From contig CP084166.1 of NCBI GenBank assembly GCA_021513695.1, positions 2,272,001 to 2,336,000 of the forward strand: DNA of 64,000 nucleotides, in the 5' to 3' direction. Below the pieces are notes generated by a model. That model saw only the letters and a list, made by a program, of their open reading frames with translations. It was not told the DNA's origin and made no database searches. This DNA comes from Candidatus Heimdallarchaeum aukensis (lineage in GTDB: Archaea; Asgardarchaeota; Heimdallarchaeia; Heimdallarchaeales; Heimdallarchaeaceae). The translations under genes were made by a program, and so were the position numbers. The first letter of the stretch is position 1; each line of letters begins with the position of its first letter. Below, in pieces: positions 3 to 59,292 of the stretch.

Positions 3-983
3 ACTCACAAGGATAAAATATATGGTTTCTTCCTTGGAAATGAGGACGGTATTATCTTTAAGCATAGAATTTTCAACAAGGAACTCTGTCCTGAATCAGT
101 GTTGGAAAATGTTGTAAGTTCTGTTTGTTCTTTTTTAAGAGAAACAGATCTCTCTGACCGGGGATCAATTACCTTGTCAAATTCTCTTATTTCATTTATT
201 AGAATTAAAGATGTTACTTATGTAATAAGTCATGGGATAGCAGAAATAAAAGAAGTCTATGAGATTCTGAATGAAATTGCAGACATATTTGAAGATCGGT
301 CTAAACGCCGTTTTCATAGTGGCAGTGAGAATCAGTTATTTTCTGGAGCTTCAGCTTCTTTTTCAGAAGTAGTGGAGGAAGTATTTAGAGAGATAATAAT
401 AGCTCAACAGAGGAAAGTTATGTACGAAGAAACAGTAGAAACAGATGCTGAAGAAATAATTCTTTCTGATCTAGAAATTGTTGACTTTCCTGTTTCTGTT
501 TCAGGAGAATCAAAAACTGAGCAAATTTCAAAAGAAAAAGAAGAAAAAGCAGCTACTGAAGGAAAAGAAGAAAAAGTAAAACCTGTTAGTAAGGAAGATC
601 ACTTGAGATCTATTTCATATAATATATTAAATTCTCTATCTGGAATCAAGCATCTAGTTTTTATCGAACATGCTGATAACAAAGCTAAAATGTTTTTTGA
701 ATATGGTGAGATTGAAGAAAAAATAGTTCAGCAAACGGTATCTATATGTGAAAAATTCCTAAAAGAAATTATAGAACTTATGGCTGATAAAGAAGAAAAA
801 AGTGCGATAGAAGTAAGTAAGAACTATCAGATTATCTTTGTTCCATTAAATGAAACTAATTTTATGTATGCTATCGCCACAAAAAGTATTGACCCTGTAA
901 TTATGGAACCTGTTTTTGAAAGAATTGCAAGACGGATAGTCCAGCTTGTTCTTGACTATAAAAAAGAAAAAAATGAAAGTTAA
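3..983 (+). CDS. hypothetical protein, 5'-partial at window edge; apparent tandem Roadblock/longin-like modules joined by an acidic K/E linker (fold call by eye)
   Basis: Frame is open from nt 3 (THKDKIYGFFLGNEDGIIFKHRIF...) through the listed GTG at 99, so the gene probably starts upstream of the window. Stop at 981-983. Purine-rich coding strand, as in most genes here. Confidence 0.6.
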   Translation, partial: THKDKIYGFFLGNEDGIIFKHRIFNKELCPESVLENVVSSVCSFLRETDLSDRGSITLSNSLISFIRIKDVTYVISHGIAEIKEVYEILNEIADIFEDRSKRRFHSGSENQLFSGASASFSEVVEEVFREIIIAQQRKVMYEETVETDAEEIILSDLEIVDFPVSVSGESKTEQISKEKEEKAATEGKEEKVKPVSKEDHLRSISYNILNSLSGIKHLVFIEHADNKAKMFFEYGEIEEKIVQQTVSICEKFLKEIIELMADKEEKSAIEVSKNYQIIFVPLNETNFMYAIATKSIDPVIMEPVFERIARRIVQLVLDYKKEKNES

Positions 984-26908: not shown

Positions 26909-27305
26909 TTTTTTAAACTCCTATAATTCTCCTTTACGTGTCCTAATTTCTGCTCTGTGTTTGATATTAAAAAAATTTCTATCGGTGTCTTGAACTTTTG
27001 TCTGAAGGAGTATTTATCAAGTAAAATTTAGTGTTGTTGTTTCTCCGTTAAACAACTTGATTTCTGCGTAGTTTTTTGTATGTTGATCCTGCACTCAGAT
27101 AAGCTAATTCAAGAGAGTGCAACTAGCATCTATTAACCTGAGGAGAAGGTTAAGTTTTCTTATATTAATTGGAGCAAAATGAAACAAACTCTTGCTCATA
27201 AAGAGCTGTTAGTATTTATGCTTCTATGTTTTAGAAAGACTAAAAAGTGATAATGTTTTGAATTACTCAAAGCGGTTTAATAATTGTCGAATGGCGGTTG
27301 TAACA

Positions 27306-28523: not shown

Positions 28524-28694
28524 TTAATAGCTTTTTTTTTTATTTTTTATAAAGAAATGATATTGCAATTATCAACACAATTTTTAAATGATATGACTAA
28601 ATGATATAAGATAGTAAACATAGAACAACATTTAATATGTTTAACATCATTTAGCATATTAAGGATATGTAAATATATTTGAGGAGAATCAACT

Positions 28695-28994
28695 ATGATT
28701 TCACAAAAACAATTTGAAGAAACTCTGAAAAAGTTAGAAAGCCATCCCAGTGTAAGGGGCGTTATAATAACAAGTAATGATGGCTTACCTATCTCTAGTA
28801 CAAAAAATCTTTCAATAGAAATGCGAGAAAATGTTTCAGCATTAGTAGCTTCATTGGTTGGAAGAGCTAAAGCTGTGGTTAGCGAACTAGAAGAAGGAGA
28901 CTTGAATTTCTTTACTTTAGACACAACAAAGGGTGAGATTCTTGTCGCTCCAGAACAGGATTATGTGTTAATCGTTTTACGTAATAAGCAATAA
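28695..28994 (+). CDS. Roadblock/LC7 (MglB-like) protein
   Basis: 99 aa. [22 protein letters not shown]...[10 protein letters not shown]...[16 protein letters not shown] fits the Roadblock/LC7 pattern. gaggag RBS upstream. Confidence 0.8.
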
Positions 28995-29065: not shown

Positions 29066-29632
29066 ATGAGAAAAGATGCCTCAGGAAAGCAACACTTTAA
29101 GATAGTGTTTGTTGGACCTAGTTTAGCTGGAAAAACAACTTTACTTAGAAGACTCCATTCTGATGTCACAGGAATAAAAAAAGGTGGATTAAACAGTATA
29201 GAAGATCCTTCAGGAAGAACAATTTACTTTGATTTCTCACCTTTTATGGCGACATCAAATGTCATTTTGGATATTTACACAGTGGCTGGTCAAAAAAGGC
29301 ATAGACACCAAAGGGCGTTAGTTTTGAAGGGTGTTGACGGTCTCTTGTTTGTTGCAGATTCTTCAAGAGCGATGTTGGCCGATAATGTCGAATCAGCAGA
29401 AGAATTGAAAAAAGAACTTGGAGACAAATTAAACAATGAGATTCCACTAGTTATAGTTCTAAATAAACGTGATTTGCCAGATGCAATGGATAAACGAGAG
29501 TTAATCGATGCTTTAAATCTTGGAACAAATTTACCAGTTTACGAAACAATCGCCACAGAAGGTATAGGTGTTAAACGCGCTTTTCAGTCCCTAGCTAGAG
29601 AAGTTTTATTAAAACAAGTTTATAACATGTAG
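29066..29632 (+). CDS. MglA-family small GTPase
   Basis: G1 GPSLAGKTT, G3 TVAGQ (Thr in place of Ras Asp, as in MglA), G4 NKRD. 188 aa. Confidence 0.75.
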   Translation: MRKDASGKQHFKIVFVGPSLAGKTTLLRRLHSDVTGIKKGGLNSIEDPSGRTIYFDFSPFMATSNVILDIYTVAGQKRHRHQRALVLKGVDGLLFVADSSRAMLADNVESAEELKKELGDKLNNEIPLVIVLNKRDLPDAMDKRELIDALNLGTNLPVYETIATEGIGVKRAFQSLAREVLLKQVYNM

Positions 29633-31046: not shown

Positions 31047-32309
31047 ATGCGCCGTTATTTATCTATAGATTTTCTTCGAGGGTTAGGCATATTTTTTGTT
31101 GTGTTATTACATCAGCTTGTGTTTCATTACACTAATATTATTGAAGCAATTGAAAATCCCAACATTATTGTAATAATAGTAGGTTTTCTTTTAGAATTTG
31201 GAGGATTATTTGTTATAATCTCATCTATGGCGCATACGGTAACCAACTATGGAAGATTGAGAGACAATACTCAATCTCTCAGAAATATCTTAACTAGTTC
31301 AATTTTTTATGGATTCTTTTTCTTAATAATGAATTACATTTATTTCCTTATTTTTGCTCCTGGTCTATTAGACAGAGGTGTGGGAGAATTCAGAATGTCT
31401 ATTATTCCCGCTTTAATAAGGAAAGGAGTTTTTGTTCCTCCTGACATTGATCGTTATTTCCACGCAACTATTTTGGGAATCATTGGTTGGAGTATAATCT
31501 TTGTGAATATAGTTCTTTATTTCATATTTAGGAAAAATGGTTTACAAAAAGTTAAACGAAATATAATAATCATGTTTACCATAGGGACTCTATTTACAGT
31601 AGCAGGATTATCTCGAATATATCTTTATCCCGTATTTAACGGACTTGTTGACAATTCAAATTATTTTTCTGCGATTTTCCTTGGATTTTTAGTAAATAAT
31701 TATTATCCAATTTTTCCTTATCTTGGGTTCGCTTTCTATGGTTCTATGATAGGGTTAGCAATAGTGTATGAAGAATATAAAAAATATTACTGGAAGTTCT
31801 TTTTTGTTCTTGGTTTTTTCTGGTTAATATTAGGTGTTGCTGGTTATGTCTCTTTTGAAGATACAATGCTTGAGCGAGCTGTTGATATGCATGCTGTTTC
31901 TTTTGAAGCACTAATGTTAGGTATTTTTATTCTGTTATTTCAACTATTCTTTAAACTCATTGATCAAAATGGAGATGATGTTAGCCCAAAAAAAGAAAAA
32001 ACTACTCGTTTCTTTAGAAGATTTGGTGTTGTTTCATTTACAATTTTTATGTTTGAAACTACCTTCTCTGAACTGATCGGAAAAGTATTCGATTTAGTTT
32101 GGGCTGGCTGGAACACAGAAATGTGGTCATGTTTTATATTTTCATTTACAAATCTGATTCTTTGGACAATTATTATTGTTTTATGGGAAAAAACGGGATT
32201 TAAATATGGGTTAGAATGGATGACTGGAAAGATCCTCTATTTACTAGTAAAACGCCCTTCTACAAAAATCTATTTGAAGCAAATTCTATATTTAGAGGAA
32301 ACAAAATAA
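31047..32309 (+). CDS. polytopic membrane protein, DUF1624 / heparan-alpha-glucosaminide N-acetyltransferase-like
   Basis: N-terminal RRYLSIDFLRGLGIFFVVLLH signature and about 10 hydrophobic helices. Confidence 0.6.
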   Translation: MRRYLSIDFLRGLGIFFVVLLHQLVFHYTNIIEAIENPNIIVIIVGFLLEFGGLFVIISSMAHTVTNYGRLRDNTQSLRNILTSSIFYGFFFLIMNYIYFLIFAPGLLDRGVGEFRMSIIPALIRKGVFVPPDIDRYFHATILGIIGWSIIFVNIVLYFIFRKNGLQKVKRNIIIMFTIGTLFTVAGLSRIYLYPVFNGLVDNSNYFSAIFLGFLVNNYYPIFPYLGFAFYGSMIGLAIVYEEYKKYYWKFFFVLGFFWLILGVAGYVSFEDTMLERAVDMHAVSFEALMLGIFILLFQLFFKLIDQNGDDVSPKKEKTTRFFRRFGVVSFTIFMFETTFSELIGKVFDLVWAGWNTEMWSCFIFSFTNLILWTIIIVLWEKTGFKYGLEWMTGKILYLLVKRPSTKIYLKQILYLEETK

Positions 32310-32356: not shown

Positions 32357-32833
32357 ATGAGAACTTTTTTTAGATTGAGAATGAGTTTAAAAACAAGTTT
32401 CTACTGCTATGGACATAAAAATGTTTTATGTAAGCATTTAACTACACTTGAATTTACTACAGATGACTTTCTTACATTAAGAGGTGACTGTATAATAGGA
32501 ATAAGATCCAACATGAGTTTGTTTTCACTACCAGAAAAAATGAAACAATTTATCAGAAATGATAATACAAAAATAATTGTCAAGATGGAAGTTGACGATT
32601 TAGTTGAAGAAGTAATAGGCTATGGAAATTCAAAGCTGGAATTATCAGACACACATGCAATGATTATTAGAAAAAGCTCTTACACATGTTCAAGGACTTT
32701 AATGATAGGTGCAAATAAGGCTGCAATTGATATTTCAAGAGAGATTGTTCAAAAAATGAAAAACCCTGATTCTAAAATGAGGGTCACAATTCAAGTGTTT
32801 CCTGCAGATAATAGAAGATCAATACACGCATGA
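32357..32833 (+). CDS. DUF371-like protein
   Basis: FYCYGHKNVLCKHLTTLEFTTDDFLTLRGDCIIGI resembles the archaeal DUF371 N-terminus as I recall it. Confidence 0.45.
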   Translation: MRTFFRLRMSLKTSFYCYGHKNVLCKHLTTLEFTTDDFLTLRGDCIIGIRSNMSLFSLPEKMKQFIRNDNTKIIVKMEVDDLVEEVIGYGNSKLELSDTHAMIIRKSSYTCSRTLMIGANKAAIDISREIVQKMKNPDSKMRVTIQVFPADNRRSIHA

Positions 32834-33864
32834 ATCTCATGTGGAGCACTTTCTCTTATTTTTTGAAAGTGAAGAATTTGCTTTATTCTCCAATTTGTTT
32901 TACTTAACTCGTTTTTTACTAAATTGTAGAGGTCATTTCTTCCTGTTTCATCTTTGACAAAAGAATAAAAGTGTAGAATTGTTCCTTCTTTAAAAATTTG
33001 TGAAGCTAATTGTAGAAATTGGATGGACGTTTTTGGTAAATTCATAATGACTCTGTCGGTTTTAGGTAGGTTGTCTATAATTTCTCTAATATCACCTACA
33101 ATTGGGTAAATTTTTCCTTTAAGTTTGTTTAGTGAAATTGATTTCTTAAGGCAATCAATAGCTTTTTGGTTAATATCTATTCCATAAATAGTAGCTTTTG
33201 TTTTTTTGGCTATATGAAGAGGAAAAGGACCTGTACTTGTAAACATGTCTACAACAATTTCTCCCTCTTTGACTAAATTTGCTATTCGATTATGTTCGTC
33301 TCCTAACCTGGGACTAAAATATGTTTTTTCTACATCTACAAATATTCTTATTCCATATTCTTTATGAATTGTTTCGGTTTTTTTTTCGCCAAATAAATGT
33401 TCAATTTTTCTGAGTCTGTATTCACCTGAGACAGCAGAAGTTTTTCTATAAACACTTTTTATTGAAGGAAAGAGGTTACAAAGCATCTTTCCAATTTCAT
33501 GTTTAAAAGGTGAAAGCGTTTCATCAAATTCGATAATTGCGATGTCACCAATTTGATCAAACGATTTTGGGATAAAATCCACCATATTATTTGGAATAAC
33601 ATTTTTTAAAGCTTCAGCAAGGCTTTTTGGTTTTTGTCTTTTTTTCTTAAAGAAAAATTCTACTATCTCTCCTTGCTCTTTTAGTGGAAAATCATTGATG
33701 AAGGCTTTTTTTTTATCAAGATTTATTTTTAATGGAAAAAAAAGATAGTCTTCTTGTTTTGAAATTTTAAAATTAAAATCCAAATAATTGTTATTAATTA
33801 ACCATTTTCTAGTCTGTTCTCCATATGAACAATGAATTTTTAATGCAATGGAACGAACAGACAT
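32791..33864 (-). CDS. trm5: tRNA (guanine37-N1)-methyltransferase, Trm5/Met-10+ family
   Basis: FSPRLGDEHNRI, VVDMFTSTGPFPLHIAK (SAM motif) and MNLP blocks. Confidence 0.75.
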   Translation of the reverse strand: MSVRSIALKIHCSYGEQTRKWLINNNYLDFNFKISKQEDYLFFPLKINLDKKKAFINDFPLKEQGEIVEFFFKKKRQKPKSLAEALKNVIPNNMVDFIPKSFDQIGDIAIIEFDETLSPFKHEIGKMLCNLFPSIKSVYRKTSAVSGEYRLRKIEHLFGEKKTETIHKEYGIRIFVDVEKTYFSPRLGDEHNRIANLVKEGEIVVDMFTSTGPFPLHIAKKTKATIYGIDINQKAIDCLKKSISLNKLKGKIYPIVGDIREIIDNLPKTDRVIMNLPKTSIQFLQLASQIFKEGTILHFYSFVKDETGRNDLYNLVKNELSKTNWRIKQILHFQKIRESAPHEIHACIDLLLSAGNT

Positions 33865-34023: not shown

Positions 34024-34455
34024 TTATTGTTTAATCTTTTCTTTTTTGACTACTTTGATTTCATCAATTTCTGTAACAGGATACTGTCCATCTTTATCTT
34101 TTTCTAGATATTTTACCATATCCCAGATTGTTGAAAGGAAAATACTTACTCCTACAACTGCTTCCATTTCTACTCCTGTCCGAGCAACAGTCTTTACTGT
34201 TACCTCTACAATTATCTCCTCTTCTTTAATCTCATGATTAAAATCAACGTGTGTTATTGGTATTTGATGACACATAGGAATTAGTTCAGGAGTACGTTTA
34301 ATTGCTTGCATAGCTGCAATTTTTCCTACAACTAATGGGTCACCTTTTTTTATTGTGCGTTCATTTATTTGTTTTATAGTTTCTTTTTTAAGTTGTATTT
34401 TTCCTCTAGCTGTAGCGATCCTGGTAATATGATTTTTATTACTTATATCAATCAT
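34024..34455 (-). CDS. moaC: cyclic pyranopterin monophosphate synthase MoaC
   Basis: MIDISNKNHITRIATARGKI...MCHQIP...GVEMEA motifs. Start moved to the ATG at 34455, giving an 8-nt overlap with the moaA stop instead of the track's 74 nt. Confidence 0.85.
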   Translation of the reverse strand: MIDISNKNHITRIATARGKIQLKKETIKQINERTIKKGDPLVVGKIAAMQAIKRTPELIPMCHQIPITHVDFNHEIKEEEIIVEVTVKTVARTGVEMEAVVGVSIFLSTIWDMVKYLEKDKDGQYPVTEIDEIKVVKKEKIKQ

Positions 34456-35350
34456 AGAAATTTTTTCCTTTGACAAAAAAGGGTCTCCTCCTTTCCATTG
34501 CTTTTTTAAGAGATTTCTCAATATCTTCTTCTATTGGAACTAGGTTGTCAATTCTGTATAAACATGGTTGAAATTGAAAATCGTTTGTTACACGTAAAGT
34601 CTTACAATTCATGCAGAAATTGGTGTTGTGAACTGGATTAACTATTTCTATTTTTGCACCGTTTGGGAGAGTATACTGTTTTCTATGATGTAAATCTCTT
34701 ATTTTTATTTCAACCGCTTCTTTTTCTAATTTTGAAGCAAGATCTTTTAGACTAACATGAAATTTGTTAAAGTATTCTTTGTCTAAATCGATTAATTCAA
34801 TGATTTGCAACATAACATCCTTTTCTGCAGCAAAATTAATCATAGGTTCAATCTCATTCTCATTTATGCCCTTTAGTAAAACCATGTTTAGTTTGATAGG
34901 TGTCAAACCTATTTCTTGTGCAATTGTAATTTGCTTGTCTATTGACTTTAATGATTTATACGAAGGGTTGTAGTGATATGAGTCACAACTGATGTTTACC
35001 CTATCTAAACCTGCTTCTTTTAGCTGTTCTGCATATTTTTCTAATAGAAGTCCATTTGTTGTCATAGATAAATCTTCAATTTTTGGGTGCGATGAAAAAA
35101 TTTTTACTATGTCAACAATTTGGGGGTGAATTAAAGGCTCTCCACCCGTAATTTTTATGCTTGATATTGAATACTTGTCAATAATCGACAAAAGTTTTTT
35201 TATTTGATCAAGAGTTAATTTATTAGAATTATGTGAAGAAAAACCTTCATTGTGGCAATAAGGGCAGTTTAGGTTACAACTAGAAATAACAGAAACTCTT
35301 AATCTTGTTATCTCTCTATTGTATTTATCTATTAGTTTTATAATGATCAC
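34448..35350 (-). CDS. moaA: GTP 3',8-cyclase MoaA (radical SAM)
   Basis: CNLNCPYCHNEG cluster motif, ITGGEPL, and a C-terminal second Cys cluster (CMNCKTLRVT...QPC). Confidence 0.88.
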   Translation of the reverse strand: MIIIKLIDKYNREITRLRVSVISSCNLNCPYCHNEGFSSHNSNKLTLDQIKKLLSIIDKYSISSIKITGGEPLIHPQIVDIVKIFSSHPKIEDLSMTTNGLLLEKYAEQLKEAGLDRVNISCDSYHYNPSYKSLKSIDKQITIAQEIGLTPIKLNMVLLKGINENEIEPMINFAAEKDVMLQIIELIDLDKEYFNKFHVSLKDLASKLEKEAVEIKIRDLHHRKQYTLPNGAKIEIVNPVHNTNFCMNCKTLRVTNDFQFQPCLYRIDNLVPIEEDIEKSLKKAMERRRPFFVKGKNFYD

Positions 35351-35353
35351 CTG

Positions 35354-35800
35354 TTATTTAATAACCTCTATTTTATCGTCAACAGAGATGGTTCCTGTTT
35401 TTATAACTTTAGTAAATATTCCTTCTTTTGGCATAATACAATTTCCCACTAACTTCCTTATTTCACAGCCATGATGGCACTCTTTTCCGATTTGAGTAAC
35501 TTCTAAAACTACATTATTTATCTTTATTTTTGTTCCAATTGGTAGTTCATGAAGTGATATACCTTCTGTCGTTATATTTTCAGCAAAATCACCGTAGTTA
35601 AGGGATAAACCTTGTTTTTTCATCTTGTCAATACTTTCTTTTGCTAAAAGAGAAACTTGTCTGTGCCAATCTCCAGCGTGAGAATCCCCTTTTAATCCAG
35701 TTTGGGTAATTTCACAGCTGTACACATTAGTTTTTTTTGTTCCTTTTCTTTCACTAATATTTACAGCTTTAACCCTTCCTATCATTTCAATAAAAAGCAC
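35354..35800 (-). CDS. MOSC domain protein
   Basis: 148 aa, GDSHAGDWHRQVSLL and a conserved C-terminal Cys region. Sits in the moa operon. Confidence 0.65.
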   Translation of the reverse strand: MLFIEMIGRVKAVNISERKGTKKTNVYSCEITQTGLKGDSHAGDWHRQVSLLAKESIDKMKKQGLSLNYGDFAENITTEGISLHELPIGTKIKINNVVLEVTQIGKECHHGCEIRKLVGNCIMPKEGIFTKVIKTGTISVDDKIEVIK

Positions 35801-35905
35801 CTATGTTCTTTTTTAAATATTTACTATTTACACTTTTACTTGTAGAGACAGAGAGAATCCTTGCCATTTGTTAAAATTTATAAAAGGAGAGACGACAATC
35901 AAAGT

Positions 35906-37114
35906 ATGAGACCCTTTAAAAGATTAATTAGTTTAGATGAAGCTTTAAGAATTCTAGATGAAAATACAACTCCATTATCTGAAACGGAAACTGTTTCTAT
36001 CTTTGAATTATTAGGTAGAGTTTCTGCACAAGATGTCATTGCTGACCTAAATATTCCCCCATTTAACAGATCAGCAATGGATGGTTTTGCTGTGAAAGCA
36101 TCCTCAACTTTTTTGGCTTCTGATAGAAATCCTGTGTATTTGGAGTGTATAGATAAAATACTAGCGGGTGACGTTCCGCATAAAGAAATAAATGAAAATG
36201 AGTGCATTGAAATCGCAACAGGAGCAATGCTTCCTAGTTCTGCAGATGCTGTAGTTCCAGTGGAATATACTAATAGAGAAGGAAATAAAATTGAAATTAT
36301 CAAAAGTTTTCCTCCTAACGCTAACGTTTCCTTAGAAGGTGTTGACATTAAAAAAGGAGAAAAAGTTATTGAAAAGGGAATGGTTCTAGTTCCAGGAAGA
36401 ATAGGTGTGTTAGCTGCCTTAAATATCTCTTCTTTAGAAGTTTACCGGAAACCAAAGGTTGCAATTATTCCAACAGGAAGAGAGATTGCTCCTTTAGGTG
36501 GAGAATTAAAATTAGGACAAGTCTATGACATTAATACTTATACAATTACCTCTTTAATAAAAGATATTGGTGGAGAACCAATTGTTTTTGATATTGTAGA
36601 AGATAAATTCGAAGATCTGGAAAAAGCAATTTTAGAAGCATTAGAAAAAGCAGATTTAGTTTTGATACTAGGCGGAAGTTCTGTTGGAGAGAGAGACATT
36701 AACATTGACGTATTAGAAAAACATGGTACTATACTTTTTCACGGAATTCAACTTAAACCAGGAAAACCGAATTTATGTGCAAAAATTAATGGAAAATTAG
36801 TTTTAAATCTTGCAGGTTATCCTACGTCTTGTCTTACTAATGGCTATATTATCGTTTCTCCAGTTTTAAAGAAAATGGCTCGCCTTCCTCAAAGACCAAA
36901 ACAGAAAATCAAAGCAAAGTTAGGAAGAAAAATTGTTTCAAACCTTGGAAGACATCAGTTTTTCACTGTACGTTTAGAAGGTGATATCGCCTATCCCGCA
37001 TTCAAAGAATCTGGTGCAATTACAAGTATTGCTTTAGCTGATGGTTATATTGAAATCCCCTATAATGTAGATTTGATTGAAGAAGGGGCAGAAGTTGAAG
37101 TAACATTATTTTAG
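35906..37114 (+). CDS. moeA: molybdopterin molybdotransferase MoeA
   Basis: PPFNRSAMDGFAV, IATGAMLP and GGSSVGERD motifs. ATG at 35906 preferred to the track's TTG at 35861. Confidence 0.85.
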   Translation: MRPFKRLISLDEALRILDENTTPLSETETVSIFELLGRVSAQDVIADLNIPPFNRSAMDGFAVKASSTFLASDRNPVYLECIDKILAGDVPHKEINENECIEIATGAMLPSSADAVVPVEYTNREGNKIEIIKSFPPNANVSLEGVDIKKGEKVIEKGMVLVPGRIGVLAALNISSLEVYRKPKVAIIPTGREIAPLGGELKLGQVYDINTYTITSLIKDIGGEPIVFDIVEDKFEDLEKAILEALEKADLVLILGGSSVGERDINIDVLEKHGTILFHGIQLKPGKPNLCAKINGKLVLNLAGYPTSCLTNGYIIVSPVLKKMARLPQRPKQKIKAKLGRKIVSNLGRHQFFTVRLEGDIAYPAFKESGAITSIALADGYIEIPYNVDLIEEGAEVEVTLF

Positions 37115-37122
37115 TGATTAAA

Positions 37123-37650
37123 ATGAATGAAACTCCCAAAGAGAAACATACGGTTAACAAAAACATTTCAATAAATGTTCAGCTTATAATGGTAAGTGAT
37201 TCTTTATCTAAAGCAGATGATATAACTAGAAAAAGAAACGATAAATCTGGAAATATAGCTAAAGATATGCTTGAAAAAGCAGGGATTTCTCCAGGAACTA
37301 TAATTTATGTAGAGGATAGCCTTGCAGAAATTCAGAAAAAAATAAAGCTAGCAGTTGAAGAAGGCAAAAATTTTATTATAACTATGGGTGGAACCGGAAT
37401 TAGCTCACGAGACGTAACTATTGAAGCAGTAAAACCTTTATTAACAAAACAGCTAGATGGTTTTGGAGAACTCTTCCGATCTCTAACATTTGAACAAGTA
37501 GGTACAGTTTCAATAATGACCCGTGCACTTGCAGGAATAATAAAACAATCACTTGTTGTTTCTCTCCCAGGTTCTCCAAATGCAGTTAAATTAGGAATAG
37601 ATATTATCTTAAAAGAGCTGATGCATATATTGAATTTAATTAGTAGATAG
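37123..37650 (+). CDS. moaB: MoaB/Mog-type molybdenum cofactor biosynthesis protein
   Basis: ITMGGTGISSRDVT and LPGSPNAV motifs. Alternative GTG start at 37114 overlaps the moeA stop. Confidence 0.8.
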   Translation: MNETPKEKHTVNKNISINVQLIMVSDSLSKADDITRKRNDKSGNIAKDMLEKAGISPGTIIYVEDSLAEIQKKIKLAVEEGKNFIITMGGTGISSRDVTIEAVKPLLTKQLDGFGELFRSLTFEQVGTVSIMTRALAGIIKQSLVVSLPGSPNAVKLGIDIILKELMHILNLISR

Positions 37651-42977: not shown

Positions 42978-44132
42978 ATGGTCGTTATGAGTGGATATAG
43001 CCCTACTTGGACTTCAAAAGGCTCTGACAAATTAAGGATCCTTCAAGTCACAAAGATACTAATGAATATAATAGATAGATTGATCAATTCGATTGACGTA
43101 ACTGATGAAAAAACAAGAAATATGGTTGAAGGAATAATAGCGAACACAATTTATAATTATTTTACACCAAACAAAGATTTAGCGATCGAAAAACAGTATG
43201 AATATCTACTAGAATTCTTAGGTTGGAAATTAATTTCTATCGAAAAAAAAGATGATGATTCACTCTCATTAAGTTTAGGTGCAAATCGTTTTATTGATGA
43301 AGAAACAGATAATTTAGCATATAACGCAATTGTTTTAGGCATTGCAAAATCTATTGGATATTTCATTTTCAATAAAGATGTTAAAGTAGAATTGATGGTA
43401 AGTCAGTTTGATTCGACTCAAATAACTGCTCTAATTGAGCGAACTGATAAAGAAATAGCTGTTGAAACTCAAGAAAAGTTAGGTATTCAAATCTCAAAAG
43501 AAGAAGGAGAATTAGGAATCGAACAGAAACAAGCTCCAGCTACCAAAAAAACTCCTGCAATTGAAGTTAAGCCTGAATTAGAATTAGATGTTAAATCTAT
43601 ATTTTCTCCTATTCTTCAGAATTATCCACCCACATCAATTTTGCCTGTATTTCATAAAGTTTTATCTGAAATTGTTACAAGCTTCTTTTCAGAGATTGAA
43701 GACAGTCAAGTAATTAATGCAAAGGCATCGTATTCCGAAATAAACACCGTTTTCTTAATAGAATTTATACTTAGAACCTTACCAACTATTGGAAAAGATG
43801 TGAGTGAGATTGCTACTCTCGCAGGGCAATATCTAATTAAAGCTATACTTACAAAAACACCTGATGATATCATAAAATATTTACCAAAAGAACTTCTTTC
43901 TGAAATCTCTAGACGTGTATCTTATGTTGAATTTGGTGCGCGAGATTATTGTTCTTATGCTCCAGGAGAACGATGTGTTGAAGGGAAAAGAGATTTATGC
44001 GACTTTGTTCTATTTCTTTGGCAAGGAATGTTAGATTCTCTCATTCCTGAAAAAAAATTCAAACTTGGAGAACGCATTCCGGCAACAAGAAGAGGAAAAT
44101 TCTGTTTGGTGGAATTTATAAAACAACAGTAG
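42978..44132 (+). CDS. hypothetical protein with C-terminal V4R-like (TRAPP/Bet3-related) domain
   Basis: C-terminus YCSYAPGERCVEGKRDLCDFVLFLWQGMLDSL...RRGKFCLVEF follows the V4R pattern (C...C-x-F..G...G...G..C..E). The N-terminal half may hold a second degenerate copy. Confidence 0.5.
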   Translation: MVVMSGYSPTWTSKGSDKLRILQVTKILMNIIDRLINSIDVTDEKTRNMVEGIIANTIYNYFTPNKDLAIEKQYEYLLEFLGWKLISIEKKDDDSLSLSLGANRFIDEETDNLAYNAIVLGIAKSIGYFIFNKDVKVELMVSQFDSTQITALIERTDKEIAVETQEKLGIQISKEEGELGIEQKQAPATKKTPAIEVKPELELDVKSIFSPILQNYPPTSILPVFHKVLSEIVTSFFSEIEDSQVINAKASYSEINTVFLIEFILRTLPTIGKDVSEIATLAGQYLIKAILTKTPDDIIKYLPKELLSEISRRVSYVEFGARDYCSYAPGERCVEGKRDLCDFVLFLWQGMLDSLIPEKKFKLGERIPATRRGKFCLVEFIKQQ

Positions 44133-44142
44133 GTGTGAAAAA

Positions 44143-44604
44143 ATGGGTAGAAAAACAATAAAAAAAACATATAAGGATACATATGCAAGAGGACAAGTTG
44201 ATAAAAGTGAATTTCAAGGTAGATATTTTGTTAAAATAGAGCTTGTATCTCTGAAGGTACTGGAAGATAAAGATTTACTTGGAAATGAAAGTGAATTTTA
44301 TTTTAAAGTGGGAAGAATGTTACACAAGCATCGAATTCCTCAGAAAGGTACTATTAATTTAGAGAAAAATGAGGTTTTTCAGCCAACAGATGGGTTGACT
44401 TTATATACACAATTTATTCATAAACCTGAAAGGGGAACAATTGTGGTTCCTTTTCGTCTACGCGAAAGAGATCCATTGAAGGTGGATGACCACATTATTA
44501 AAACTAAGTTATCTATTCCTCTAGGATCTTCTGATTATATAGTTCTGGTAGAAAAATCTGTAAAAGTAAAACTAAAAATTTCAGCTTTGGAAACTCGATA
44601 CTAA
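44143..44604 (+). CDS. hypothetical protein (153 aa), probably all-beta
   Basis: Starts 10 nt after the previous stop, preceded by aggtg. Alternating hydrophobic pattern. No family recognised. Confidence 0.45.
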   Translation: MGRKTIKKTYKDTYARGQVDKSEFQGRYFVKIELVSLKVLEDKDLLGNESEFYFKVGRMLHKHRIPQKGTINLEKNEVFQPTDGLTLYTQFIHKPERGTIVVPFRLRERDPLKVDDHIIKTKLSIPLGSSDYIVLVEKSVKVKLKISALETRY

Positions 44605-44616
44605 AATAACAAATTC

Positions 44617-45828
44617 TTACCATTTATTTTTTTTAAAAATAAATTTCAACCCTGTTTTCATGAAGAAAGGCCAAAGTTCTAATTTTGTTAATAACTTCCA
44701 AACTATGGCCTGTTGATTATCTACATCTCCTTTAGATGTAAATATTTGTTTATACTTTGGTTTATTGAATATTTTTAGTAGATTATCGATGTCTTTGTCA
44801 TCTAAAGAATCTAAATATTGTCTAACAAGCTTCATTATGAAAAGATTTCTAGCAAATTCCTTTTTCCACCTTTTTTCATACTGCTTTAGGAATGATTTTT
44901 TATAATTTTCTTCGATTATTGCTTTTGCAGCTATCTCTCCCGCAATTCTGGCTGCTATACCCCCTAAAATTACACCGCCCCCTGTCGTAGGTTTCGTCTG
45001 TCCTGCTGCATCTCCAACAACTAAGATATTATCAGTATAGCTTCTGTTAATATAAGATCCTAATGGTATCGCTCCACTCATTTCTCTCAAAATTTTTGCA
45101 GAATAAAATCTCTCCTTCAATAGTTCGCTATTTATAAAATTTCTCAAATATTTTTTTGCTGGTCGATATCTAGTTCCTATTCCTACCTTTGCCACACTAT
45201 TGTCTATTGGAATAATCCACCCAAAGAAACCTGGGGCATATTTTGATATCTGATATAACTCCACATATCTTTTATCTAAATTTTCTATACCATCAATTAT
45301 AAATTGCGAAGCAAAGATTATCTCATCAGGATTAGATAATCCGACTTGAGAATTAAGTTTAGGAAATCTTCCTTCTGCTAGAATCGAAACTTTAGTTGTT
45401 ATTCTACTCTCTTTAGCTTGTTTTCCTAACACTAATTCAATATTTTCTGATTTTCTGTGTATATTTTTAACCCTTGAATTTGTTCTTATTTCTATTCCAT
45501 TATCATGTGCAATTGATGCCAAATATCTGTTAAACTTACTTCTATCTACTACAAGTGCATGATTTGAATTTTTTTCAACTACTAACTCTGTTCCATTAGC
45601 AGAAAATATTTTGGCTCCTATTATTTCCTTGTTTTGAATAATTTCTGATGGTAATTTGTTGAGACCTATTTTTTCTAACCCTTCTATACTTAGTAATCCT
45701 GCACAGTGTTCAGTAATTCCTATTTCTTTTTTGGATTCAAGTACTAGAACATCTACATCATATTTACTCGCTTCAATTGCAGATAGTAGTCCAGCTGGTC
45801 CTCCACCAATAACAACGATTTTTTTCAT
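44617..45828 (-). CDS. geranylgeranyl reductase family flavoprotein
   Basis: N-terminal VVIGGGPAGLLSA dinucleotide fold, VVGDAAGQTKPTTGGG. Length typical of archaeal lipid GGR. Confidence 0.8.
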   Translation of the reverse strand: MKKIVVIGGGPAGLLSAIEASKYDVDVLVLESKKEIGITEHCAGLLSIEGLEKIGLNKLPSEIIQNKEIIGAKIFSANGTELVVEKNSNHALVVDRSKFNRYLASIAHDNGIEIRTNSRVKNIHRKSENIELVLGKQAKESRITTKVSILAEGRFPKLNSQVGLSNPDEIIFASQFIIDGIENLDKRYVELYQISKYAPGFFGWIIPIDNSVAKVGIGTRYRPAKKYLRNFINSELLKERFYSAKILREMSGAIPLGSYINRSYTDNILVVGDAAGQTKPTTGGGVILGGIAARIAGEIAAKAIIEENYKKSFLKQYEKRWKKEFARNLFIMKLVRQYLDSLDDKDIDNLLKIFNKPKYKQIFTSKGDVDNQQAIVWKLLTKLELWPFFMKTGLKFIFKKNKW

Positions 45829-45881: not shown

Positions 45882-46805
45882 TTAAAAAGCTAGTTCTAAC
45901 TCATCTACAGCTTTTATTTCATTTTGTTTAATGATGTGCTTTTCCCATGTTTCTGTGTCGATAGCCAACTTTAGAACTTCCTCGAATTCTATTCTTTTGT
46001 TATAGTCTTGAAATATCTCAATAGCTTTGTTTTCATTTTCTTTAATCCACTCGTTAGAAAAATTAGATAGAAATTCAGTAAATATCTGGTAAGCTTTTAT
46101 TTTTTCTTTATTTGTTGTTAAAACGATTGTAAACGCTTTTTCTATTTTTCTAATGAGGACTATGATGTGCTCTGATTCTATTTCAGTTAAATCTCCTAGA
46201 CCATATTGCTGACTCATGTTCAGTATTGCAGAAATAAAAGCGACTAATAAAACAGCATCATAAGGTAAAGATTGGGTAATTAGCAGATACAAAGGTTGTC
46301 CATCTTCATTTGCAATCAATATGTCTAAATCCTTTAGAACCAAGCCAAACGATGTAAATATTTTTTCGTTACCAACTTTTATTTTTTCAATATTTGTTCT
46401 TTTGTTTACAACTAAATTTAGTGATCTCGCAAAATTACTCACTTGCTTTCTCTCATATTCTATAGTCTTTTTATCTTCCATTATGTCATTTATAGAACTA
46501 CTTTTGACCCATGCAAATTGTTGACGAAAGATTTTTACTACTTTTTTGACTACTGTTGAATAATAATCCTTTTTCTTGACGATAACTAAAAAATAATCAT
46601 TTACTGCTTCATAAATAACTTCATTTTCTCCAAAAATGACTTTTTTTGGTATTTTTTCTCCTAATTCTGTAGTAAGTGTTGTCACAGCACTTATGAAACT
46701 TATAAGGGACGCTTTGATTTCCCTGTTAGACCAGGTTCCATGATAGATTCTGTAAAACCTACATGAACCGTTTCTTTTTAGTATCAAAATGGCCTTGATT
46801 AACAC
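45882..46805 (-). CDS. hypothetical protein with two Roadblock/longin-like modules (fold call by eye)
   Basis: MLIKAILILKRNGSCRFYRIY...YFLVIVKKKD and DILIANEDGQPLYLLITQ...AFTIVLTTNKEK resemble the strand-helix-strand pattern of longin/Roadblock domains. Confidence 0.45.
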   Translation of the reverse strand: MLIKAILILKRNGSCRFYRIYHGTWSNREIKASLISFISAVTTLTTELGEKIPKKVIFGENEVIYEAVNDYFLVIVKKKDYYSTVVKKVVKIFRQQFAWVKSSSINDIMEDKKTIEYERKQVSNFARSLNLVVNKRTNIEKIKVGNEKIFTSFGLVLKDLDILIANEDGQPLYLLITQSLPYDAVLLVAFISAILNMSQQYGLGDLTEIESEHIIVLIRKIEKAFTIVLTTNKEKIKAYQIFTEFLSNFSNEWIKENENKAIEIFQDYNKRIEFEEVLKLAIDTETWEKHIIKQNEIKAVDELELAF

Positions 46806-46913: not shown

Positions 46914-47990
46914 TTAATCAATAATATAAACTGATGAAGCTTTGAAGATTGCGCATATTTCTTTTCCTTTCTTTATATCTAACTTTCTTTTTGATGTTCT
47001 CGTAATTACAGATGTAATCTCTATTCCACAATCCAGTACTACTTTCACATTTGATGATAAGTTTTCAATGATTTCAACAACTTTGCCCTCAAAACAATTT
47101 CTTGCACTGGTGAAATCCATTTTTTTAGGAGAAAGTATAATGTCCTCTGGTCGTATTGTTATAGTTATTTTTTGATTCGGTTTGAGTTTAAGATCATCAG
47201 ATAAAAATATCTTAATTTTCTTATTAGCATTTTCTGGAATAAAAAAAGTGAGATTCTCTTCATGATAAATAGTTCCTGAAAAAATATTCTCAAAATTAAA
47301 AAACTCTGCAATAAATTGAGATTTAGGATCCTCTATTATATCTTCAGGAGTGGCAAATCGTTCTATTTGTCCATTATTTAGTATTATGACTTTATTTGCT
47401 AATTCTGTTGCATCACCAATATTATGAGTAACATAAATAATTGTTTTATTGTAAACCTCTTTCGCTTTTTTAAGTAGTTTTATTATCTCTCTAGCTTTTC
47501 TTCTATCAACTCCAGAAAGAGGTTCATCCAATAAAATCAGTGGAAAATCAAGAATTAAAGCTCTGGCAATCGATATCCTATGCGCTTCTCCTCCAGACAA
47601 ATTTTTAGGTAATCGATTCCTCTTTTCTTCTAATCCCATGAATTCAAGAATGTCGTTAATTCTTTTTTCTCGTTCTTCTTTTGGAAAGTGATTAAGAATA
47701 AGTGCATATTCAAGATTTTCCTGAACTGTCATGTGAGGAAATAGTGTCGGTTTTTGTGGTACATAAGCTATTTGCCTTTTATTTAGAGGAAGGTAGGTGA
47801 TATCTTTCCCTCTGTAAACAATAGTCCCTTCGTTAGGAGAATAAATACCAAGGATAGTTTTTAGTAAAGATGTTTTTCCACTTCCAGAGGGCCCCAAAAT
47901 AACTATTGAATCATTTTTGGAGGCAGAAAATGTTATATCCTTTAACTCAAATTTTCCTAGAGTTAATCTAATTGAATTCACTTTTAACAT
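46914..47990 (-). CDS. molybdate/tungstate ABC transporter ATPase with C-terminal TOBE/Mop domain
   Basis: Walker A GPSGSGKTS, signature LSGGEAHR, Walker B LLDEP, and a C-terminal TOBE-like beta domain. Confidence 0.85.
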   Translation of the reverse strand: MLKVNSIRLTLGKFELKDITFSASKNDSIVILGPSGSGKTSLLKTILGIYSPNEGTIVYRGKDITYLPLNKRQIAYVPQKPTLFPHMTVQENLEYALILNHFPKEEREKRINDILEFMGLEEKRNRLPKNLSGGEAHRISIARALILDFPLILLDEPLSGVDRRKAREIIKLLKKAKEVYNKTIIYVTHNIGDATELANKVIILNNGQIERFATPEDIIEDPKSQFIAEFFNFENIFSGTIYHEENLTFFIPENANKKIKIFLSDDLKLKPNQKITITIRPEDIILSPKKMDFTSARNCFEGKVVEIIENLSSNVKVVLDCGIEITSVITRTSKRKLDIKKGKEICAIFKASSVYIID

Positions 47991-48806
47991 TTATCTGTCC
48001 TCCTTCATCATAATTCTTGCTCCTACTCTTGCTAAGGCAAAAAGAATTGTACTTATAATAATGATAAAAACAGCAACAGGTCTAGCTGCATTTGTTCCTT
48101 GAGAGTTGTATAAATCGAAAACAATTACTGGAGCTGTTAAGGGATAATATGCCATGAAAACCACGGCACCAAACTCTGATGCTGCTCTTGCCCAACACAA
48201 AATAGTACTTGCTAAAATACTTTTTCTCGTTTGAGGAAAAACCACTTTTCTAAATGTGGTAAAAGATGATGCACCTAATATGTGCGAAAAAATTTCAAAA
48301 TCTGGGTCTATTAGATCAAATGTCTCTCTTGCACCTTGTATTAAAATGGGGGCGCTAACGAATAATTGAGCTATTACTATTCCTAGAATTGACCTTGTAA
48401 ATATAGTACCATACTCTGATGGGAATATTTGACCGATTAAACCATATCTACCAAAAACAGATAATAAAGCAATACCAGCAACACTATGGGGGAGAGCTAA
48501 AGGTAAATCTACTAATGTAATAAGAAAATTTTTTCCAAAAAACTCTTTTCTTGAAAAAATATATCCTAAACTAATTCCAAAAAATATTGAGACTATTGCT
48601 GTAATTGTAGCTGTAAAGAAAGTTGTCAGTATTGCTAGTTGCACTTTCTCAATCTTTAGAATCTCAATAAGACTTTGAGGTTTTTCTGAAAAAACCATCC
48701 ACAAAATAGGAATCACTAAAAGAAATAGGGCTAACATACTAAATAAGTAAAGAATAAGATAAAAAAGAGATATTTTTTTGGTAAAATGTTTTATTTTTAC
48801 TTTCAT
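47991..48806 (-). CDS. molybdate/tungstate ABC transporter permease
   Basis: Six hydrophobic segments and an EAA-like loop (ARAASEFGAV). Abuts the ATPase gene with no gap. Confidence 0.8.
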   Translation of the reverse strand: MKVKIKHFTKKISLFYLILYLFSMLALFLLVIPILWMVFSEKPQSLIEILKIEKVQLAILTTFFTATITAIVSIFFGISLGYIFSRKEFFGKNFLITLVDLPLALPHSVAGIALLSVFGRYGLIGQIFPSEYGTIFTRSILGIVIAQLFVSAPILIQGARETFDLIDPDFEIFSHILGASSFTTFRKVVFPQTRKSILASTILCWARAASEFGAVVFMAYYPLTAPVIVFDLYNSQGTNAARPVAVFIIIISTILFALARVGARIMMKEDR

Positions 48807-48809
48807 AAT

Positions 48810-49844
48810 TTACAGCTCTACATTAGCTATAACTTTATCTTTTAATTTTTCTGGTAATAAACTTATGTTTTTTGTTTGTGGAGGATTAATAACCGGTTGG
48901 TAAGCTTGTTCGCTAATTATTCTTAATCCTTCTTCTGAAAGAATAAAACTAACAAAATCAACGGCTTCTTGGAAATTGGGTGCATTGTTTGGGATTGTTA
49001 ATCCGTACCATATTGCTTTACCTGTTTTTTCAGTAATACCTGGGCCTGTTGTATTTACAACTTCTCCAGTTATCGAGTTAAAGTAAACTGTTGCCTTACT
49101 ATAATAATCATTAAACGATTGGTTTGCGAGATTAATGTGTTCATCCAATTTGATATATGATAAATTATACTGAAGAGCCATGCTTTCATAAAGAAAAGCA
49201 TAGTCTATTTCTCCGATTTGTAATGGCCCCACAAGCTGTGCTTCATTACTTGTCCAAGGGTTTTTGAGTGTGGGGTGATTTATGTAATTATTCCACAGAC
49301 TACTATCATTATAAAAGAATGAAGCAAGTTTAAGAGTAATAAGTGTTCTATATCCACATGGATCATCTGCAGGATTAGATCTAGTTGTTATCACAGATGA
49401 TCGATTTGCATATAGGTACCAATTTGAAGCGTTTATCTCCGATGAAAATTGACTTTTTGAAGTGTAGGCTAAAACTATTGCATTTCTGGCAAAAACAACA
49501 CTCCAATTTGCCCATTTTGGTTGTGTTTCAACCATCATAGTATCAATTAGTTTATAATCAGAACTGAAAAGGATATCAGCTAATCTTCCTTCCTCAGTTA
49601 TTTTTCTTATTGAAGCTGCGCTCCCTGCTGATTCATGTTCAATAACAATATTAGGGTGTTGTCTTTCATATTCTTCTGCTAATTTTTCGATAGGGTAACT
49701 CAAGCTTCCTGCATGAAAAATAACAAGATGTGTTTTTTTATCACGTAAAAGTATCATACTAGCTGAAAATATAAAAGCTACGATAAAAAGACCGATTAAG
49801 ATATTAATAATGATCTTTTTGCTATTCATTATCTTCGAGAACAT
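48810..49844 (-). CDS. tungstate/molybdate substrate-binding protein (WtpA/ModA-like)
   Basis: N-terminal anchor helix, then VIFHAGSLSYP...ESAGSAASIRKI...ADILFSSDY, typical of WtpA-type binding proteins. Confidence 0.7.
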   Translation of the reverse strand: MFSKIMNSKKIIINILIGLFIVAFIFSASMILLRDKKTHLVIFHAGSLSYPIEKLAEEYERQHPNIVIEHESAGSAASIRKITEEGRLADILFSSDYKLIDTMMVETQPKWANWSVVFARNAIVLAYTSKSQFSSEINASNWYLYANRSSVITTRSNPADDPCGYRTLITLKLASFFYNDSSLWNNYINHPTLKNPWTSNEAQLVGPLQIGEIDYAFLYESMALQYNLSYIKLDEHINLANQSFNDYYSKATVYFNSITGEVVNTTGPGITEKTGKAIWYGLTIPNNAPNFQEAVDFVSFILSEEGLRIISEQAYQPVINPPQTKNISLLPEKLKDKVIANVEL

Positions 49845-57847: not shown

Positions 57848-58441
57848 CTATCTAATGTATATCTCTCTAAATTTCAAAACCTTTTCTTCACTTTGGATAG
57901 CTAATCTTGCAGCATGAGAAAAAAGTTTTTCAACATTTTCAGATGATAATGCAGATGTTTCTATATAATCAAAATTATTTTCTTTTGCATATTCTTCTGC
58001 TTTTTCTCTGTCTACAGCTCTTGCATTTTTTAGATCACTCTTATTTCCACATAAAATAATTGGAATTTCTGAACATTTTTTCTTTATTTCACTAACCCAA
58101 AAGGATACATCATCAAATGTTGACGTTTTAGTAATATCATAGACTACGATAGCAACTTTAGCTCCTAGAAAATATTTTTGTCTAACAAATCCAAAAATTT
58201 CTTGAGCTCCTGTATCCCATAAACTAATTCTAACATTAACATCATCGGTGAGTATATTTTTAGACAAATTTTCATTTAATTCGTCCTTTGTTAAGGAAAG
58301 ACTTTTCGTTAACCAACTCACACCCATTGTTGGGATATAAGAATATGAGAAAGTGTTCATAGCATATCTTCTTGCCAATGATGTTTTTCCTACAAAAGCT
58401 GAACCAATTGTTATAATTTTATACAAATGTCGTTCTATCAT
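57848..58441 (-). CDS. Rab/Ras-like small GTPase with variant G3 motif
   Basis: G1 GSAFVGKTS, switch I YIPTMGVSW, G3 WDTGAQE (canonical DTAGQE), G4 GNKSD, G5 ETSAL. No C-terminal Cys. ATG at 58441 preferred, 2 nt after the upstream gene's stop. Confidence 0.8.
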   Translation of the reverse strand: MIERHLYKIITIGSAFVGKTSLARRYAMNTFSYSYIPTMGVSWLTKSLSLTKDELNENLSKNILTDDVNVRISLWDTGAQEIFGFVRQKYFLGAKVAIVVYDITKTSTFDDVSFWVSEIKKKCSEIPIILCGNKSDLKNARAVDREKAEEYAKENNFDYIETSALSSENVEKLFSHAARLAIQSEEKVLKFREIYIR

Positions 58442-58443
58442 TT

Positions 58444-59292
58444 TTATCTCCAAAATATTTCTATTAGTTTTCTTTCTATGTTGATACTGCTTAAACGCCT
58501 CCAATCATCGAGAATCAAAGGCTTTGTATTCGTATTGATTAATTCTCTAAACTGTTCTGGTTCAAAATACTTACTAGTGATATCAACAAATTCTGAAATG
58601 AAATTAAGGAATGTCTCCTTTATTTGGCTATAATCTTCAATTTCTGTTATTTCTGTTGAGTTTACTTCATCTCTTATAAAGAACCCTTCTTTGTCAAAGA
58701 AAAATAACTCGTCAATTTTTTTGTAATCATTTATTAATTTATTAACATCATTTCTTAGTAACTGATTAATTTTTTTCCTTTTCGATTGATCTTCCACAAC
58801 TTTTTGTATTCCTGAACATACTGAATTTATTATATTCTCAAATATTTCTAATAAATTTCTGAACTCAATATCTTTGATGTGATTAGATATAATAGCGTTC
58901 ACTTTGAAAACTTCGGAAATCACCATAGATGGCGATAAGGGTTTTTTTACTTGTTTAATTTCATCAAGGAAATTTTTAGCAGTTTCTTTATCATAGATGT
59001 CAAAAGAGTATAGAAAGAGATTCATTAAAAAGAATAATTGAGAATACGCCATTCCTTCTTTTTGCTCTTGGGAGATTAGTACAAATATGAAATCATACTT
59101 CTTTTCAACTAAAACAATTGTTTTCTTAAAAATTATTTCTCTTAATGGTCCTAATTCTCTTTGTTCTCCCATCTTTATGAATTTTAATAGTTCCGCAAAT
59201 TGGTCAGGTTTAAGAATTAAATTTTCACTATTAGGCGTGTCTGTAAAGATAGTATCGTAGTTATTTTTGTTGAGTATGTAAAAATTAACCAA
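58444..59292 (-). CDS. hypothetical protein, N-terminal longin/Roadblock-like module; candidate GTPase partner
   Basis: 282 aa. MVNFYILNKNN...KTIVLVEKKYDFIFVLISQEQ...SQLFFLMNLFLYSF. Tightly coupled to the downstream GTPase. Confidence 0.5.
   Translation of the reverse strand: MVNFYILNKNNYDTIFTDTPNSENLILKPDQFAELLKFIKMGEQRELGPLREIIFKKTIVLVEKKYDFIFVLISQEQKEGMAYSQLFFLMNLFLYSFDIYDKETAKNFLDEIKQVKKPLSPSMVISEVFKVNAIISNHIKDIEFRNLLEIFENIINSVCSGIQKVVEDQSKRKKINQLLRNDVNKLINDYKKIDELFFFDKEGFFIRDEVNSTEITEIEDYSQIKETFLNFISEFVDITSKYFEPEQFRELINTNTKPLILDDWRRLSSINIERKLIEIFWR

Follow-up and report, generated by a model that had tools for sequence, protein, structure and literature searches.

A 64,000-nucleotide stretch of contig CP084166.1 from Candidatus Heimdallarchaeum aukensis (positions 2,272,001 to 2,336,000; hereafter the window) carries on its minus strand, at 45882..46805, a gene, referred to here as the di-longin gene, whose product is a soluble 36-kDa protein comprising two longin domains in one chain and a conserved C-terminal ETWEKH motif, as judged from structure prediction, fold searches, and conservation. 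Longin and Roadblock platforms form the common core of the eukaryotic guanine nucleotide exchange factors (GEFs) and GTPase-activating proteins (GAPs) that give organelles their identity. We consider it roughly an even chance (probability about 0.5) that the di-longin protein binds a small GTPase of the archaeon as a single-chain platform and regulates where it is located or which nucleotide it carries, with a role as exchange factor or scaffold likelier than one as GAP. An initial annotation of this DNA had described a tandem longin/Roadblock-like protein and compared it with eukaryotic platforms of this kind, and its overall interpretation is supported by the analyses presented below.

The gene and the predicted fold of its product

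The di-longin open reading frame (ORF) is a real, conserved protein-coding gene under purifying selection. It lies on the minus strand and starts with GTG, and its position, length of 307 aa, and N-terminal sequence had been read correctly in the initial annotation, as they match the ORF list. The GTG start is well supported, since the frame upstream of it is open for two codons only and the orthologs begin at the same residue in an eight-member alignment. At 32% G+C, 307 codons in a row would be free of stops by chance with a probability of ~3e-11, and the ratio of nonsynonymous to synonymous substitution rates (dN/dS) is 0.084 in comparison with the 90%-identical ortholog of Candidatus Heimdallarchaeum endolithica. 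The label 'hypothetical protein' carried by all named copies, the GTG start, and the small size of the family might suggest that the ORF is not a functional gene, having arisen by chance or being a pseudogene in decay; this reading, to which we assign practically no probability, is refuted by the dN/dS and ORF chance values, by full-length orthologs in 11 species genomes, and by the confidently predicted fold.

The structure was predicted with AlphaFold2 (AF2) from an alignment of eight family members, which gave a predicted local distance difference test (pLDDT) score of 77.6 and a predicted template modeling (pTM) score of 0.76. Longin domains have their strands first and two helices last, whereas Roadblock domains start with a helix. 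In the model, residues 3-132 and residues 160-284 both follow the order β-β-α-β-β-β-α-α, and no helix precedes β1 in either module, as in the longin order β1-β2-α1-β3-β4-β5-α2-α3. Longin domain 1 (LD1) comprises β1 3-10, β2 15-20, α1 28-47, β3 53-58, β4 61-68, β5 71-78, α2 84-97, and α3 112-132, and longin domain 2 (LD2) comprises β1 160-166, β2 171-176, α1 184-200, β3 206-211, β4 215-221, β5 224-230, α2 233-256, and α3 261-284. The order α-β-β-α-β-β-β(-α) with an N-terminal helix and no more than one helix at the C-terminal end, characteristic of Roadblock/LC7 domains, was found in neither module, and that identity was rejected. The longin part of the tandem 'longin/Roadblock-like' designation therefore holds for both modules, as predicted by AF2 and Foldseek, and the Roadblock part does not; a fold unrelated to both classes, the outcome named in advance as speaking against that designation, was not what the model and Foldseek returned.

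The model resembles solved longin-domain structures. When the whole chain was compared with Foldseek, the top ranks were taken by Mon1, Ccz1, HPS1, HPS4, Fuzzy, and Inturned (E 1.6e-5 to 1e-3, ~280-350 columns), all of them tri-longin subunits; the same alignments have template modeling (TM) scores of ~0.3 and root-mean-square deviations of ~18 Å, which means that the modules match in sequence order and differ in mutual orientation. Sequence evidence for the longin fold is marginal and points in the same direction. The Clat_adaptor_s family matched the whole protein with E 6e-4 and 20.2 bits, below the gathering score of 22.5, and LD1 alone with 23.2 bits, above it, which agrees with the earlier remark that the N-terminal module resembles sigma-adaptin and longin domains. 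Intu_longin_1 matched the window protein with E 0.008 (16.9 bits vs 23.7), Fuz_longin_1 matched the ortholog P0007 with 27.6 bits vs 26.1, no single stretch being significant, and Fuz_longin_1 gave faint matches to LD2 of two other orthologs (E 0.04-0.17). When PDB sequences were searched, the protein and the family profile each returned noise only.

That the protein contains two similar modules, as had been proposed, is borne out at the level of predicted structure by the repeated order of elements. At the level of sequence the similarity is weak: residues 31-80 of LD1 align with residues 184-232 of LD2 in the correct structural register, with E 0.0046 in hhalign and E 0.001 in BLASTP (single comparison). 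LD1 matches a generic Roadblock profile with E 0.005, so LD2 is no closer to LD1 than that profile is, which leaves no grounds for claiming a recent internal duplication.

Conservation within the protein is highest in LD2, with 49-74% identity in orthologs vs 38-49% for LD1, and the core of LD2 has the invariant pattern DLDxL..GQPxY..T..LPYDAxL..FxSAIL. Invariant residues of LD1 include G13, S14, C15, Y18, R19, and W25 in the β1-β2 hairpin region and F125, L129, N130, L131, N134, and N138 in α3. The linker between the domains shows 26-39% identity outside the genus, with alignment gaps. The last 23 residues, the C-terminal tail, are well conserved, with invariant E285, T286, W287, E288, H290, and E296. 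As a conserved segment modeled with low confidence is typical of motifs that fold on binding, the tail is probably such a motif, folding upon binding of a partner.

A candidate platform for small GTPases and its alternatives

LD1 is basic (isoelectric point (pI) 9.7) and LD2 is acidic (pI 4.5), and this opposite charge, together with the high pTM score, suggests that the two domains pack together; a neighboring two-module Bet3-like protein with a floppy linker reached a pTM of 0.50, as against 0.76 for the di-longin protein. Packed in this way, LD1 and LD2 would form a single-chain version of the longin-longin dimers on which small GTPases of eukaryotic membrane traffic dock, such as the TRAPP pair Bet5-Trs23 or the paired first longin domains of Mon1-Ccz1. 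The platform would dock an archaeal small GTPase and regulate its nucleotide state or location, and the conserved tail could recruit a further partner. We base this role on the use of longin and Roadblock dimers from bacteria to eukaryotes (reviewed in PMC10933270). The best candidate client would be the MglA-family GTPase encoded at 29066, with the Roadblock protein encoded at 28695 as its partner; a Rab-like GTPase, or a TRAPP-like assembly with the tandem Bet3-fold neighbor, would be alternatives.

The gene of the Roadblock protein, which is of the dynein-LC7 type, lies directly upstream of the MglA-like GTPase gene. In 6 of the ~9 loci whose flanks were long enough, this pair is located 0.3-5 kb from the di-longin gene (L001, L003/L015, L005, L012, L014, and L018), in three positions and orientations relative to it, including a directly divergent one in L005. 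Between genomes whose di-longin proteins share only 33-53% identity, both proteins of the pair are 84-95% identical. The association of the di-longin gene with the pair is suggestive only, and several observations speak against a platform role or against the linkage on which it draws. Some longin domains serve elsewhere, in SNARE regulation or as coat subunits. In the window the pair lies 16 kb away, and none was found within 10 kb in L004 and L013. At a density of about one small GTPase gene per 32 kb, one would be expected within 10 kb by chance in ~27% of cases, and the loci are not independent. The commonest neighbor of the di-longin gene is that of a Trm5/TYW2 tRNA methyltransferase, which, together with a DUF371 gene, adjoins it divergently in 11 of 13 distinct genomes within a housekeeping block (PCMT, FEN1, a DNA methylase, and CDC48), and a fixed operon with a GTPase gene never occurs. 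Owing to this setting, the proximity of the MglA pair may reflect shared ancestry only. Asgard GTPase and longin/Roadblock genes are generally not arranged in operons (Tran et al., PMC10933270), and gene context is therefore weak evidence either way.

A more specific possibility is that the protein is a GTPase-activating longin of the FLCN/SMCR8/NPRL2 type acting on an MglA-like or Rag/Arf-like GTPase. GAP longins are defined by a GP dipeptide just before or at the start of β2 (PMC12290439). At this position the di-longin family has G13-S14-C15 in LD1 and G169-Q170-P171 in LD2, all invariant. The conserved arginine finger that GAP longins carry beside the GP motif, which we take to lie in the β4-β5 loop from the positions of FLCN R164 and NPRL2 R78, has no conserved counterpart, the corresponding loops reading VNDY or KGDY in LD1 and KIEK, KIQK, or RVSN in LD2. 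The replacement of GP by GSC and GQP and the lack of a conserved β4-β5 arginine make a GAP role less likely. In addition, the model contains no DENN or other C-terminal module, GAP longins rank below adaptin, TRAPP, and Mon1 longins in structural comparison, and the linked MglA-type GTPase already adjoins a canonical Roadblock (MglB-like) GAP candidate. Overall, we regard GAP activity of this type as quite unlikely.

Slightly better placed, and still improbable, is a structural role as a small-chain-like coat or adaptor subunit (sigma/mu-adaptin, zeta/delta-COP) or as another non-GTPase scaffold (SNARE-regulatory or SRX-like). Sigma- and mu-adaptins and zeta- and delta-COP are single longins in heterotetrameric coats with large solenoid subunits, and no adaptin-type large-subunit Pfam domain was found in the ~35 window proteins scanned, a scan outside which several window ORFs and the rest of the genome fall. 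Neither a transmembrane segment nor a SNARE motif or SNARE-like region is present, the hydropathy maximum of 1.64 lying at a buried LD2 helix, and a gap of one or two Z units is too small to tell longin subfamilies apart.

The protein might also supply the longins of a TRAPP-like exchange factor encoded by two genes, replacing Bet5-Trs23, with the tandem Bet3-fold protein replacing Bet3/Trs31; we judge this about as doubtful as a coat role. The Bet3-fold gene adjoins the di-longin gene in the arrangement shared by the window and L004 and in L005, and not in 11 of the 13 genomes. The Bet3-like family is far wider, with at least 68 matches vs 8 for the di-longin family, and the block comprising aS21/EF1beta, two Bet3 modules, the 153-aa gene, and a geranylgeranyl-reductase-type (GGR) gene in L007-L009 lacks the di-longin gene in the 1-6 kb of flank fetched on each side. 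In the TRAPP core, the longins (Bet5/TRAPPC1, Trs23/TRAPPC4, and Trs20/TRAPPC2, flanked by Bet3-family subunits) are separate chains, whereas those of the di-longin protein are fused, and no Sybindin or Sedlin Pfam match was found at E up to 1. In prokaryotes, the V4R fold is also used to sense small molecules. The di-longin protein is not demonstrably a TRAPP or adaptin subunit.

Distribution and relation to known systems

The family is small and restricted to one Heimdallarchaeal family. Among 5.8 billion proteins searched there were 8 homologs with 38-95% identity, all source-named ones from Heimdallarchaeaceae, and 1.84 billion cluster representatives, searched exhaustively with a profile, yielded 8 proteins at E <=1e-10, several of them fragments, followed by a weak tail of single-longin or Roadblock proteins aligning to LD1 only. 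When species genomes in GTDB were scanned with the signature [IL][DES][TS]ETWE[KR]H, the family was present in 11, all Heimdallarchaeota metagenome-assembled genomes. A two-module relative without the ETWEKH tail, P0015 (L021 6670-7695), is 23% identical and is encoded on a contig of 49% G+C; a GTPase gene of the same orientation follows 0.7 kb downstream (L021 8376-8900), beyond an intervening dodecin gene, and encodes a Rab-like and not an MglA-like protein. A search of the window and all loci with the family hidden Markov model returned no further diverged members.

Tri-longin Rab-GEF subunits (Mon1, Ccz1; Fuzzy, Inturned; HPS1, HPS4) also carry several longin domains per chain, and the di-longin protein gives faint sequence matches to the first-longin families PF19036 and PF19031. 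They have three domains in ~400-700 aa, whereas the di-longin protein has two and a helical tail in 307 aa, with a different domain orientation. Tri-longin subunits form obligate heterodimers with a paralogous multi-longin subunit; no paralogous partner subunit was identified for the di-longin protein, the only other tandem candidate, the 3..983 family, having no detectable homology to it, and the protein is confined to one archaeal family. As only helices follow the two domains and the sequence matches are borderline, membership in the tri-longin family was rejected. Asgard archaea encode many longin and Roadblock proteins, including GTPase fusions and a Heimdall longin-TRAPPC3 fusion (PMC10933270), and the structure of an Asgard Roadblock-Longin protein has been solved (PDB 8yqg). 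The di-longin protein differs from such Roadblock-Longin and Roadblock proteins (PDB 8yqg, 9jue, 7yh1; PMC10933270) in being longin+longin, in coming from Heimdallarchaeaceae rather than Lokiarchaeia, and in its own conserved C-terminal motif. With MglB-MglA it would share the platform principle, and an MglA-family GTPase with a Roadblock protein is the GTPase most often linked here; MglB, however, is a GAP in which two identical chains pair, each a single Roadblock domain, whereas the two modules of the di-longin protein are non-identical and longin in topology. By analogy, the closest working models for the di-longin protein would be the Mon1-Ccz1 and TRAPP platforms built on longin pairs.

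Another Asgard longin protein is unsurprising in itself, many being already known; what is new among Asgard 'eukaryotic signature' proteins (ESPs) is the longin-longin architecture. In the literature searched on tri-longin, tandem-longin, and Roadblock-Longin topics, no paper describing a longin-longin chain in archaea was found, and the main text of a structural ESP survey mentions neither longin nor Mon1 nor Ccz1 (PMC12962969). The origin of multi-longin exchange factors before the last eukaryotic common ancestor is a standing question. The family might be a surviving archaeal relative of the stock behind Mon1-Ccz1, Fuzzy-Inturned, and BLOC-3, already acting as an exchange factor for a Rab-like or MglA-like GTPase and possibly TRAPP-like together with the Bet3-fold neighbor, a proposal that we hold to be a long shot. 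Its confinement to a single Heimdallarchaeal family speaks for an invention within that lineage and against direct ancestry to the eukaryotic complexes, which limits its weight. The two-longin chain is compact and soluble, and its set of candidate clients is defined (the MglA-like GTPase with its Roadblock protein, a Rab-like GTPase, and the tandem Bet3-fold neighbor), which makes longin regulation of GTPases in archaea directly testable with a few recombinant proteins.

Neighboring genes and candidate partners

Table 1. Features of the window discussed in the text (positions in window coordinates).
Feature	Position	Strand	Basis or remark
Di-longin gene, complete	45882..46805	-	GTG at 46805, stop codon 45882-45884
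LD1, aa 1-132	46410..46805	-	AF2 secondary structure, Clat_adaptor_s match
K/E/N-rich linker, aa 133-159	46329..46409	-	pLDDT 44-59, length varies among orthologs
LD2, aa 160-284	45954..46328	-	AF2 model, invariant columns
C-terminal tail, aa 285-307	45885..45953	-	Invariant columns; pLDDT <50
GGR-type flavoprotein gene	44617-45828	-	Pfam scan
Three-gene ATP-binding cassette (ABC) transporter	46914-49844	-	TOBE-domain ATPase, SBP_bac_11-type binding protein
Tandem Bet3-fold protein, 384 aa, candidate partner	42978..44132	+	Two Bet3/TRAPPC3/V4R-fold modules
153-aa protein	44143..44604	+	Always directly downstream of Bet3-like gene
Roadblock/LC7 protein, 99 aa, candidate partner	28695..28994	+	PDB phmmer 7f8f 1.6e-25, dynein light chain roadblock ~1e-16
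MglA-family small GTPase, 188 aa, candidate client	29066..29632	+	MglA E 3.5e-31 vs Arf 7.5e-12
Ras/Rab-like GTPase	57848-58504	-	Start overlapped by 282-aa gene
282-aa protein without Pfam match	58444-59292	-	Overlaps start of Ras/Rab-like GTPase
3..983 protein	3-983	+	Cut by window start; separate ~330-aa family

The di-longin gene lies, as had been described, between a lipid reductase gene, here of the GGR type, and a transporter; all of these genes lie on the minus strand, 53 and 108 nt apart. The ABC transporter is, from its TOBE domain and SBP_bac_11 type, predicted to be molybdate/tungstate-like. A functional tie of the di-longin protein to the GGR or to this transporter was rejected, as these neighbors are confined to the arrangement in the window and Ca. 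Heimdallarchaeum. The Trm5 gene is present in the window at 32791-33864, separated from the di-longin gene by a stretch that carries molybdenum-cofactor synthesis genes, Hjc, Pelota, TtuA, and others. The molybdenum-cofactor cluster (34024-37650) comprises MoaC, a MoaA-like radical SAM protein, MOSC, MoeA, and a MoaB/Mog-like protein; both it and the ABC transporter were noted as sitting, in this lineage, between the di-longin gene and its usual neighbor Trm5 (by its coordinates in Table 1, the transporter lies on the far side of the di-longin gene).

The tandem Bet3-fold protein has four invariant cysteines (C325, C333, C341, and C376). The 153-aa gene accompanies the Bet3-like gene in the window, L004, L005, and L007-L009, with a gap of 10 nt in the window; its product shows 81% mean column identity in 5 genomes and has neither a Pfam nor a PDB profile match.

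The switch II of the MglA-family GTPase reads TVAGQ, and a 125-aa ORF at 28547-28924 (-) is an antisense shadow of the Roadblock gene. Two proteins of ~420 aa without a Pfam match are encoded at 27258-28523 (+) and 31047-32309 (+); the former, directly upstream of the Roadblock-MglA pair, is K/E-rich and coiled-coil-looking. Near the Ras/Rab-like GTPase, the order CDC48, 282-aa gene, GTPase is kept in L001 and L018. The 282-aa protein matches the di-longin profile faintly (domain E 0.015) and, on sequence grounds, may be another GTPase partner of the longin/Roadblock type.

The 3..983 protein, put forward for pairwise comparison as a first tandem protein of the same kind, showed no detectable homology to the di-longin protein (E >0.5 in BLASTP, E 0.13 in profile-profile comparison, and E >0.1 in all domain-by-domain comparisons), and its status as a demonstrable paralog was rejected. 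It has no Pfam or PDB sequence match and belongs to a family with at least 27 homologs, one labeled Thorarchaeota, a member of which is encoded ~3 kb from the Bet3-like gene in L007-L009.
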